This document shows positions 895 to 52,725 of a stretch of DNA of 64,000 nt, in pieces. Each line of letters opens with the position of its first letter. Positions within the stretch are counted from its first letter, which is position 1. The stretch lies in the UHGV virus genome UHGV-0134996, one strand, 5' to 3'. Source of the DNA: a virus. The translations under genes were made by a program, and so were the position numbers. The notes beneath the pieces were generated by a model, which searched no databases, was not told the DNA's origin, and worked only from the letters and a program-made list of their open reading frames with translations.

Positions 895-1130
895 TGGCAG
901 CCTCCTTAGACGTTGGTATGTAACCACCGCAGAAGAGACCAATCTTGCTGGCGGTGGACTGTACGGAGTTGGCCTTACTGGCGTCCAAGGTAACCAGCCT
1001 ACCCGAAGGTAGCCCCATACAGCCCACCATTGTAGAGGTGTGCGTGTACGCCGATACAAAAAAAAGACGCGAGCGGCGTCTGTATCGCCTTAGACTTAAG
1101 CGGGAGGCCAATCCCGGCACCCGTTTTAAT
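895..1130 (-). ncRNA. Candidate c4-like antisense RNA / immI leader (copy 1)
   Basis: Lies upstream of icd as c4 does in P1 immI; UUCG-loop hairpin at 998-1011 conserved in position with copy 2 but with a different stem; boundaries not determined. Confidence 0.3.
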
Positions 1131-1211
1131 GAGGTGCCTGATAAGCATAAACCGAAAATGCCTCAAGGCGCAAGAGGTCAGGTTCAATGTAACATCGGCA
1201 GTCAAAAAACA

Positions 1212-5607: not shown

Positions 5608-5808
5608 TTATCTGCTGCCCGGCATTCTCTGTTTAAGCACAACCATTTCCTGACGGCATAACACAGCAATAGCGGTCCTGGCACCAATTTGCTTACCAAC
5701 CAGGTATTGCTTTACCTCGCGGCGACTCACGCCATCAAGAAGCATCTTTAACGCTTCACGGGACAATTTGTTGTATTTACGTGCCATTAATCTACTCCGC
5801 GGAACCAT
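5608..5808 (-). CDS. Small basic protein (PdcA position), possible DNA-binding
   Basis: 66 aa ORF downstream of doc. Confidence 0.35.
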
Positions 5809-6172
5809 ACAATCTACGTAACGTGTCGGCGACAGAAGATACAGATATCTCTCCTGTCGCAGCCCCTACGGTAAGGTCTGCCAGTTCAGGTGAATCAAAT
5901 ACCTGCACCCCGTTACGGCGTAGAAATAACAGCGCACTGTTTAGCGCGGTACGCTTATTGGCATCATTGAATATATGCCCTCTCGCTGTAGCCACCAGGT
6001 AGGTGGCGGAGACTTCGAAAAGGTCGGTGATCTCTTCGTAGGCAACTCTGGCCTGAACTCTCCCGATAATGGCCTCTGCCCTACCCGGATCTGACATTCC
6101 CGGCAGGCCGCCGTAGCGGTTTATATTCGCATCATGAAGCGCAATAAGTTCTTCCGGTGATATATGCCTCAT
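5792..6172 (-). CDS. doc: Doc toxin (Fic/Doc family, death on curing)
   Basis: 126 aa; strong recall of Doc sequence ([14 protein letters not shown]...); overlaps phd stop. Confidence 0.9.
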
Positions 6173-6393
6173 TATCGGTTAACCAGTTCCTTGTTGGTGG
6201 AGTCCAGGGTGTCAAACAGGGATGCAAATTCAGCATCCAGCGCCGCTTTTTTGTAGGCTTCGAAAGTAGCCTTGCTGACAATTACTGCTGGCTCACGGCC
6301 TCTGCGGGTGATTTCAACCTCTTCCCCGGCTTCAACATTGTTGAGCACTTCAGAAAGGTTGCCGCGCGCGGTACGGAAGTTAATGGATTGCAT
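6172..6393 (-). CDS. phd: Phd antitoxin (prevent host death)
   Basis: 73 aa [18 protein letters not shown]...; classic phd-doc order. Confidence 0.9.
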
Positions 6394-48088: not shown

Positions 48089-48107
48089 GAGTCATCCCTT
48101 GTATTTT

Positions 48108-48133
48108 AAAGCTCCTTCGGGAGCTTTTTTATT
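48108..48133 (+). terminator. Intrinsic terminator with UUCG loop
   Basis: aaagctcc-ttcg-ggagcttt + TTTTTT. Confidence 0.8.
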
Positions 48134-48203
48134 TGGAGAGGAAAGGGTGCATTGAGGATACCTGACACACGAAGAGTGGCGGGATCTCTCCCCGCCAGGT
48201 CTC

Positions 48204-48359
48204 TTACCTTTCAGATTCGTAGGCTGTGAAGACAGTGACCTCCGTCTGGCTGGTTCGGATTCGTACCTCGCAGAGGTCTTTCCTCGTTACCAGTGCCGTC
48301 ACAATGACGGTTAAACAGATGACGATCAGAGCGATTAATATCGCTTTTTGCTGCTTCAT
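48204..48359 (-). CDS. hok: Hok/Gef-family type I toxin
   Basis: 51 aa MKQQKAILIALIVICLTVIVTALVTRKDLCEVRIRTSQTEVTVFTAYESER; close to Gef/Hok. Confidence 0.85.
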   Translation of the reverse strand: MKQQKAILIALIVICLTVIVTALVTRKDLCEVRIRTSQTEVTVFTAYESER

Positions 48360-48417
48360 AGCCTGCTTCTCCTTGACCTTTTGGTCGGTAAGAGGCTAAT
48401 CTACGTATGCTAAGCAT
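48211..48417 (-). CDS. mok: Mok-like overlapping reading frame
   Basis: 68-codon ORF overlapping hok in another frame. Confidence 0.5.
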   Translation of the reverse strand: MLSIRRLASYRPKGQGEAGYEAAKSDINRSDRHLFNRHCDGTGNEERPLRGTNPNQPDGGHCLHSLRI

Positions 48418-48540
48418 AGATATGGCCTCAGATTAATGTTAAGCGTCTTGCAGGACGCGTAATGTTATCTGGGGCTTTCTTCTATCTGCTTTTCGGGTAA
48501 TGCCTGAAGCAGATAGCCTCAAGCACCCGCAACGATTGTA

Positions 48541-48786
48541 TCAATGTCTGGCTTTTTTTCTATAGAAATCACCTGGAAGGGTGAATATCCACATCAGAAG
48601 AAATGTTGCAGCAAACATGATCCCTAATGGCCAGACCGCGCCAAAGAAAATCCATACTAAGATCTCCTCTGCTCGTTCTTTGCGGTCGATATCGACAAGC
48701 ATTTTTCGGCTGATCATGTATACACAGAAGCCAATACAAACATATCCTGCAAAAGCGATCGCTAACTGTAAAAAATCAGATTGCAT
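48541..48786 (-). CDS. Small membrane protein (rlfA position)
   Basis: Two hydrophobic helices; start chosen at MQSDF. Confidence 0.35.
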   Translation of the reverse strand: MQSDFLQLAIAFAGYVCIGFCVYMISRKMLVDIDRKERAEEILVWIFFGAVWPLGIMFAATFLLMWIFTLPGDFYRKKARH

Positions 48787-48836
48787 CTCCGACCTCAAAC
48801 TGAAAACGCCAGGTGACTCCAGATTAGAGCAATCTA

Positions 48837-52411: not shown

Positions 52412-52640
52412 AGTTACGGCCTCACAATCAGGTTTAACAACCTGCTACCCGCTGCTAAACAGGTGGCAGGACGTGACGGGGTTAGCAGACTGGCGATTGT
52501 GAAACCAGCAGGCCGAAGCCTCCCCATCACGCCCCACCATAATTTGGGCGTAACGCGGTTTTACGGACACAAAAATACCGCAATATCGGATATCTGCGGC
52601 TGTCCGCACAATCATTCAGGCTGCTAAACCCGGTCGCAGA
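52412..52640 (-). ncRNA. Candidate c4-like antisense RNA / immI leader (copy 2)
   Basis: UUCG hairpin at 52510-52521; inverted GCTAACCCCG / CGGGTAGC pairs; boundaries not determined. Confidence 0.35.
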
Positions 52641-52725
52641 ATTTGCTACGACGGCGGAACTATAAGCCTGAACGATTAAAAGGTCAATATGATGCGAAAA
52701 GATAGCATTCGCGACTTAAAAATAC

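Follow-up and report, generated by a model that had tools for sequence, protein, structure and literature searches.

The UHGV virus genome UHGV-0134996 was analysed over a stretch of 64,000 nucleotides (the window), which is that of a P1-like phage-plasmid, and this work concerns a hok/mok/sok type I toxin-antitoxin cassette located in it on the minus strand, between bplB and repL. Among the described systems the closest is hokW-mokW-sokW of Stx2 phages (933W and the Sakai prophage Sp5), an experimentally proven type I system composed of a toxin and an antisense antitoxin dependent on RNase III and Hfq (PMC8621323). The hok/sok (parB) locus of R1/IncF plasmids has the same order of genes and elements as the window, and its function in R1 is plasmid addiction. 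The chromosomal hok copies of E. coli K-12 are mostly inactivated, with insertion sequence (IS) elements downstream or, as for hokD, without the upstream regulatory region. The elements read in the window make it very probable that its cassette is a working module which adds a second, independent addiction system to phd-doc, the type II system of the same element. The genes and the antisense RNA of the cassette are the following (SD, Shine-Dalgarno sequence; nt, nucleotides, numbered on the hok mRNA where positions are given; aa, amino acids).

48204..48359, minus strand: hok toxin gene, 51 aa (MKQQKAILIALIVICLTVIVTALVTRKDLCEVRIRTSQTEVTVFTAYESER); Pfam HOK_GEF (PF01848) E=7.4e-20, 70.7 bits, cut-off 22
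48369..48374, minus strand: hok SD AAGGAG, read from the sequence; 48360-48373 is 100% identical to hokW
48211..48417, minus strand: mok frame of 68 codons, shifted +1 against hok and closing 7 nt before the hok stop
48425..48429, minus strand: mok SD GAGGC (nt 100-104), 8 nt upstream of the mok AUG
48409..48479, plus strand: Sok RNA, 71 nt by homology to the annotated sokW misc_RNA of 933W; may reach ~48484
48373..48402, plus strand: Sok promoter, -35 TTGACC (48373-48378), 18-nt spacer, -10 TAATCT (48397-48402)

An earlier note, made from the sequence of the window alone, had placed here a 51-aa Hok/Gef toxin with an overlapping mok-like frame and had expected a sok-like RNA on the plus strand near 48380-48450. 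The toxin and the frame are both there, and Sok with its promoter lies close to where it was expected. The coordinates given in that note, 48204-48450, take in both hok and mok and roughly half of Sok; the complete module extends over ~48105-48562, starting with the hok promoter (48562) and closing with the fbi element (48145) and a shared terminator (48108-48127).

The assignment of the toxin rests on the Pfam match and on PHROG 251 'MokW-like host killing' (E=1.6e-30). The protein keeps all 16 columns which are invariant among six Hok proteins and has the general features of the family, i.e. a length of about 50 aa, a hydrophobic helix at the N-terminus and, at the C-terminus, the conserved LCE...EV..F..YE. 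With the NCBIfam Hok subfamily hidden Markov model of the R1 type it scores 47.3 against a cut-off of 73, and the other NCBIfam Hok models are likewise below threshold; for the R1-type model this shortfall does not contradict membership of the Hok family. A Pfam DUF6232 match was rejected, its score being under the cut-off, and no PADLOC model matched Hok. Identity is 90% to HokD (Qin hokD/relF) and 78% to HokC (hokC/gef); the databases also hold near-identical entries under the name HokD. The hok frame contains no stop, frameshift or IS insertion and, in distinction to the K-12 copies, the cassette is complete and uninterrupted, with the amino acid change G37S left as a caveat.

The mok frame has its own SD, overlaps hok and spans both the hok SD and the hok AUG, an arrangement typical of the hok family from which translational coupling of the two frames is predicted. 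On the opposite strand a cis-encoded Sok counterpart with its own promoter exists, and its transcription is predicted. In its predicted fold Sok has a single-stranded 5' tail of 15 nt, a long hairpin and a U-rich tail (-31.8 kcal/mol, z = -5.3); the 5' tail is complementary to the mok AUG and the hairpin covers the mok SD. A generic promoter scan left the Sok promoter below threshold, the -10 matching at 3/6 positions, and for this reason the call rests on positional homology: the promoter occupies the position of the sokW one (TTGCCT / 17 nt / TAACCT) and of that of the R1-type locus (TTGCGC / TATCCT). In Sp5, mutations of the sokW -10 abolished protection by the antitoxin, part of which was restored by sokW in trans (PMC8621323).

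The hok mRNA carries the regulatory elements known from the family, listed below with the predicted promoter and ends of the transcript.

48535..48562, minus strand: predicted hok mRNA promoter, -35 TAGAAA (48562-48557), 16-nt spacer, extended -10 TGnTACAAT (48540-48535)
48105..48528, minus strand: full-length hok mRNA, ~424 nt, 5' end by homology, 3' end presumed at the shared terminator
48517..48528, minus strand: tac element GGGUGCUUGAGG (nt 1-12), paired with nt 372-384 in the full-length minimum-free-energy fold
48145..48157, minus strand: fbi element CCUCAAUGCACCC (nt 372-384), partner of tac; the hokW homology stops directly after it
48495..48528, minus strand: 5' hairpin of tac with the sequence just downstream (nt 1-34), -18.2 kcal/mol, z = -4.6; metastable or alternative fold
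48471..48475, minus strand: ucb or anti-SD box GCCCC (nt 54-58), paired with the mok SD in the full-length fold; invariant in nine aligned cassettes
48392..48396, minus strand: dcb box GCCUC (nt 133-137), partner of the mok SD in the Sok-target hairpin
48177..48197, minus strand: GC-rich hairpin just past the hok stop (nt 332-352), in all folds; expected to form the 3' end of the active mRNA after processing and to protect it

The promoter scan gave 9/12 matches for the hok promoter, with a TG before the -10, and G48528 would be the first base of the transcript. The Rfam match and the hokW homology both begin 7 nt downstream of the -10. This Rfam match (RF01794 'sok', 48354..48528, minus strand) scores 114.9 bits against a gathering score of 59 (E=9.4e-27) and is the only such match in the 64 kb. 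The minus strand is matched since the model represents the leader of the hok mRNA, to which Sok is complementary. As an observation on the database entry, RF01794 is named 'sok antitoxin' and models the sense strand, namely the hok mRNA leader ending in the hok AUG; a match therefore marks the strand opposite to Sok and is easily misannotated. A plus-strand 'sok' match at 48471-48619 (21 bits) was regarded as noise below the gathering score, as were weak Rfam matches to CRISPR-DR46 (on the terminator hairpin), ceN48 and sbrA, all on hairpins already explained.

In the predicted fold of the full-length RNA tac is paired with fbi and the mok SD with ucb, which is the closed form. Another long-range helix is formed between CCUCUUAC (nt 135-142) and GUAAGAGA (nt 321-328), the latter overlapping the hok stop codon. 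Upon removal of fbi the hairpin of nt 1-34 becomes the predicted 5' structure, the counterpart of the metastable 5' structure described in R1 (PMC9841398). The open conformer, in which tac is joined to ucb and the SD to dcb, lies 10.8 kcal/mol above the minimum for the full-length RNA and only 1 to 2.6 kcal/mol above it after truncation to 352-356 nt, i.e. just past the GC hairpin following the hok stop. The Sok-target hairpin (48391-48430; -13.8 kcal/mol, z = -3.7) appears when the tac/ucb pairing is enforced on the truncated RNA. In these models the folding energetics match the published logic of activation by 3' processing. The role of the post-stop GC hairpin and the definitions of ucb and dcb were taken from work on R1 (PMC9841398), in the light of which CCUCUUACC, tried as ucb, was rejected in favour of the anti-SD GCCCC as ucb and GCCUC as dcb. 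A YUNR motif (UUAG) in the loop of the target hairpin was discarded as evidence for being too degenerate.

Covariation was examined in an alignment of nine cassettes (the window, 933W, another P1-like plasmid, the R1 type, Citrobacter, E. albertii, Rahnella and two others), a small sample tested on a structure which was derived from the window itself. Members were sought in part by scanning genome contigs with the 14-mer GGGTGCTTGAGGCT; 7 of the 120 stretches found were real hok cassettes, 5 of them usable in the alignment, and the rest were mostly chance occurrences in unrelated phyla. Helix cells were paired in 83.7% of cases, compared to 40-48% with the partners slid by 1-3 columns, and 12 pairs were changed on both sides, a number reached by none of 500 shuffles. 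For tac/fbi 95.3% of the cells were paired, with one compensatory change from U-A to C-G in the R1 type, and the helix adjoining ucb contained three pairs with double changes. The post-stop GC hairpin is conserved, with changes, across the cassettes, and a small hairpin before the hok SD, around position 48376, covaries as GACC/GGUC, UGCC/GGCA and GCGC/GCGC.

Following the R1 paradigm, the weak constitutive promoter would give rise to a stable hok mRNA of ~390-425 nt, in which, as long as it is full-length, tac/fbi pairing and masking of the mok ribosome binding site by ucb would allow neither translation nor Sok binding. Slow trimming from the 3' end as far as the GC hairpin that follows the hok stop would remove fbi; with fbi gone the 5' end would capture ucb, the mok SD would shift into the Sok-target hairpin, and mok translation would turn on the overlapping hok. 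In the presence of the plasmid the short-lived Sok would pair with the mok start region via its 15-nt 5' tail and the duplex would be destroyed. After plasmid loss Sok would decay first, the stored mRNA would mature and Hok, a 51-aa inner-membrane peptide, would kill the cell. By analogy with R1 we infer such post-segregational killing for the window locus, along with transcription of both RNAs and the difference in their stability.

Comparison to 933W showed 86-87% nucleotide identity from the 5' end of the mRNA to fbi, with the Hok proteins 88% identical. The homology extends from 48540 to 48145, i.e. from the -10 region and the 5' end of the mRNA (GGGTGCTTGAGG, 48528) through CCTCAATGCACCC (48157-48145). 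Both cassettes have an extra hairpin of 16-18 nt in the Sok stem, the same position of the Sok promoter and, bar a bulged base, the same tac and fbi. The flanks on the promoter-proximal side and after fbi are unrelated, and 933W is an integrated lambdoid phage whereas the window is a plasmid prophage. The most diverged part of the cassette is the 5' tail of Sok, corresponding to the mok start, with 62% identity (differences at 6/16 positions) as opposed to 95% in the adjoining hairpin and 92% in the coding region; this divergence, we infer, would fit a divergence in antisense specificity.

A further difference is an extra T at position 48376 of the window (AAAGG[T]CAAGG; AAAGGTCAAGG, minus strand), which puts mok in the +1 frame, as in MH422554. 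It also makes the spacer of the Sok promoter 18 nt long instead of 17 nt and gives a better -35, TTGACC. Without this base the mok AUG is in frame with hok, giving an extended Hok of 70-71 aa, in 933W (70 aa), in the R1-type locus and in the P1-like plasmid L007. The assumption that mok is out of frame in R1 was dropped, since the R1-type locus which was read is in frame, and the comparison concerns that locus rather than R1 itself.

As R1-type comparator we chose an IncF locus with a Hok that shows no difference from the R1 sequence queried (100% identity). Its hok AUG is at nt 169, compared to nt 170 in the window, and the layout of the fold is alike, with the predicted tac/fbi closure, the masking of the mok SD by ucb, dcb, the small hairpin before the hok SD and the GC hairpin after the stop in common. 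The Hok proteins are only 41% identical, and the R1 leader differs in its 5' hairpin and in the shorter stem of Sok. A terminator of its own is present in R1, whereas the window locus appears to borrow that of bplB.

The nearest relatives are found on P1-like phage-plasmids (NZ_CP028125.1, MH422554, phi456, pSvP1 and pTZ20_1P), which are 98.7-99.9% identical including the bplB and repL junctions. Some of these relatives deviate in that they have G37 where the window has S37, a mok that is in frame (L007), or an insertion of IS421/IS186 at 48181-48192. The last type is frequent: in many P1-like relatives an IS4-family element of the IS421/IS186 type sits in the post-stop GC hairpin, duplicating the 12 bp of 48181-48192 and parting hok from fbi. 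Insertions between hok and fbi are the kind of lesion reported for the chromosomal hok loci of K-12. The insertion was located at 1102-1162 in locus L004 and at 970-1163 / 2501 in locus L005, and the same one, with the direct repeat GGATCTCTCC, is described for pSvP1 (PMC6906374). Still other P1-like plasmids have lost hok and kept the leader, matching only positions 261-692 of the query, which hold the Sok region and an 81-aa open reading frame (ORF).

Several observations weigh against a working addiction module. The mok frame of the window is out of frame with hok while it is in frame in all three comparators read; the offset is probably neutral, because in R1 mok needs to be translated only as far as the hok start (PMC9841398). 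When the RNA is truncated, its minimum-free-energy fold differs from the open conformer. The tail of the shared terminator is T-rich on the plus strand and on the minus strand has only TTT followed by an A-rich sequence, i.e. it is weak in the direction in which hok mRNA would end; termination of this mRNA at the bplB terminator is presumed. The closest studied homologue, hokW-sokW, was characterised for its role in lysis, plasmid stabilisation being outside the scope of that study (PMC8621323).

Two more such observations would also fit an intact but attenuated or neutralised passenger, devoid of an addiction phenotype. The first is G37S: glycine is present at this position in 111 of 114 close relatives and in R1 Hok, and the G37 form of the otherwise identical protein is commoner, on at least 999 public contigs compared to 533 for the exact S37 protein. 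The second is cross-protection, given that cassettes related to this one at 80-95% identity are present in 4,747 of 5,426 complete E. coli genomes (87%), and their Sok RNAs might neutralise the window hok. The IS-interrupted relatives and those which kept the leader without hok point in the same direction. This explanation is nevertheless unlikely. The S37 allele is itself widespread on those 533 contigs, and position 37 is variable (R, D) in more distant Hok proteins which come from cassettes with full regulatory elements; HokA presumably has E at the equivalent position. An inactivation by G37S, though conceivable, is not indicated, and the S37 allele would presumably be toxic. All regulatory elements are intact, for which reason the cassette does not resemble a decaying locus. 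That the recognition tail of Sok is the part most diverged from hokW (the hairpin being highly similar) argues against cross-neutralisation by the hokW subtype.

The cassette is located in a slot in which the window departs from the P1 backbone. By blastn the homology to P1 (AF234172) runs up to 48130, where bplB and its terminator end, and is found again from 48823 on, just beyond the 3' end of repL. The features of this slot are the following.

48131..48822, no strand: replacement segment, 692 bp for the 1,826-bp pmgF-rlfB-rlfA of P1 (blastn breakpoints against AF234172; P1 annotation)
48108..48127, no strand: hairpin terminator inside the P1 backbone, ending the convergent bplB tail operon and probably hok mRNA too (terminator scan)
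48541..48786, minus strand: predicted multi-pass membrane protein of 81 aa, full-length match to PHROG 3772, a family of unknown function (E=6.2e-54)

The 692-bp segment contains the hok cassette and the ORF of the 81-aa membrane protein. The earlier note had put the toxin between the tail operon terminator and rlfA-repL; the bplB terminator and repL do flank it, and the rest does not apply, as blastn against AF234172 found none of rlfA, rlfB and pmgF in the bplB-repL slot of the window, the cassette and the 81-aa ORF taking their place. Conversely the hok locus is missing from reference P1 (AF234172 / NC_005856), from P1 c1-100 and from P7, where the slot holds pmgF-rlfB-rlfA (rapA in P7). 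According to the P1 annotation these genes are linked to lytic replication; pmgF, rlfB and rlfA are dispensable in P1 (PMC10695390).

The 81-aa ORF has a GAGG 6 nt ahead of its ATG at 48786, its exact protein is present on at least 1,000 public contigs, and in P1-like plasmids it accompanies the hok cassette in the bplB-repL slot. It had no Pfam, NCBIfam or PADLOC match. A 108-aa ORF of the program-made list is an upstream extension of it which overlaps the repL stop, and a Pfam B12D match of this longer frame was rejected with a score under the cut-off. On the repL side, the junction with the P1 backbone falls inside the C1 operator Orlf (48817-48833, minus strand; ATTGCTCTAATCTGGAG in the window and ATTGCTCTAATTATAAC in P1), of which the first 11 of 17 bases (ATTGCTCTAAT) are retained and the final six are changed, 30 nt upstream of the 81-aa ORF.

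This location bears on the main role of a working module, which could be lytic: on induction Sok would vanish and Hok would act ahead of holin and endolysin, advancing lysis and release as described for hokW-sokW in Sp5. In that homologue (86-87% nucleotide and 88% amino acid identity) deletion halves the phage yield, and Sok is gone after mitomycin C (PMC8621323). In the window kilA, repL, the 81-aa ORF and hok share the minus strand. The C1-repressed kilA-repL operon directly precedes the cassette and is read in the same direction, and the only terminator-like structure between the two is a weak hairpin of 5 bp; read-through upon induction could therefore raise hok mRNA and disturb the convergent Sok promoter. 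The retained part of Orlf just upstream and the lytic-replication genes which P1 has in the same slot would be in line with this. Against it, P1 has a timing system of its own made of holin, antiholin and endolysin, read-through in P1-like elements is conjecture, and the cassette is self-contained, with its own promoter, and found in many unrelated contexts. A predominantly lytic role is possible though doubtful, and it is compatible with post-segregational killing. A module serving both purposes appears improbable; it would act in addiction during lysogeny, while on induction read-through would collide with the Sok promoter and Hok would advance lysis, the diverged 5' tail of Sok insulating it from resident hok loci.

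The bplB-repL slot is a hot spot for cargo. The region rlfA-rlfB-pmgF is variable region 5 of the eight in P1-like phage-plasmids (PMC9603915), and Venturini et al. 2019 described its substitution by ORFs 'including antibacterial toxin' (PMC6906374). In PLSDB 507 plasmids carry P1 repL-kilA, 99 of them with the reference pmgF-rlfB-rlfA; at least 80% of the 692-bp segment is present in 255 of the 507, and matches spanning both junctions were found in 216 plasmids. The junction-spanning arrangement was found in 199 of 5,426 complete E. coli genomes. The gene is named 'type I toxin-antitoxin system toxin HokD' by PGAP, MokW or Hok/Gef in other records, and MokW in phage records. The locus is thus already known, being annotated in hundreds of public records and its variable region described in two papers, and the novelty which the earlier note implied for two addiction systems on one element does not hold, the arrangement being not unusual.

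A position in such a variable prophage cargo slot (PMC9603915) would also suit a module acting mainly in abortive infection, in which an infecting phage shuts down host transcription, Sok is depleted and Hok released. The PHROG category of Hok, 'moron, auxiliary metabolic gene and host takeover', would agree with such a defence. The hok/sok locus of R1 reportedly excludes T4, though the reported effect is modest and speaks rather against such a role. With no PADLOC model matching either Hok or the 81-aa ORF, a defence role is the least probable of these explanations; both this one and the attenuated passenger are less likely than a working module for addiction.

The second addiction system, phd-doc, lies where the earlier note had put it (5792-6393), and its two genes are confirmed by Pfam.

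6172-6393, minus strand: phd, type II antitoxin, Pfam PhdYeFM_antitox 2.8e-13
5792-6172, minus strand: doc, type II toxin, Pfam Fic/DOC 2e-9

The order humD-phd-doc is that of P1 (humD-phd-doc-pdcA) and of the P1-like phage JL22.

Elsewhere in the window, the first 1,231 positions are unmatched in reference P1, the pacB match starting at 1232. They contain a second C4-type antisense RNA (947-1137, minus strand; Rfam C4, 75.9 bits) adjoining an isrK match (60.8 bits), in addition to the canonical immI c4 with its a1/b1 targets at 52459-52665 (minus strand). This part is common to phages JL22, RCS47 and 673R5, whose annotation has a roi/ant antirepressor module in the interval from pacB to c1, and the element may carry two antirepressor modules controlled by C4. 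Three tRNA genes on the minus strand (29426-29498, 31129-31201 and 31207-31279) agree with what is expected of the tRNA cluster of P1-like phages.

The biology of hok/sok is well established and two addiction modules per plasmid are the rule rather than the exception, and the value of the present analysis lies mostly in annotation. It corrects the local map, in which rlfA is absent, the full module extends over ~48105-48562 and Sok is on the plus strand. It also shows that P1-like phage-plasmids in their common natural form have, beside phd-doc, a type I module lacking in reference P1. This is of relevance for the persistence of P1-like elements, some of which carry resistance genes, and for attempts at curing them.

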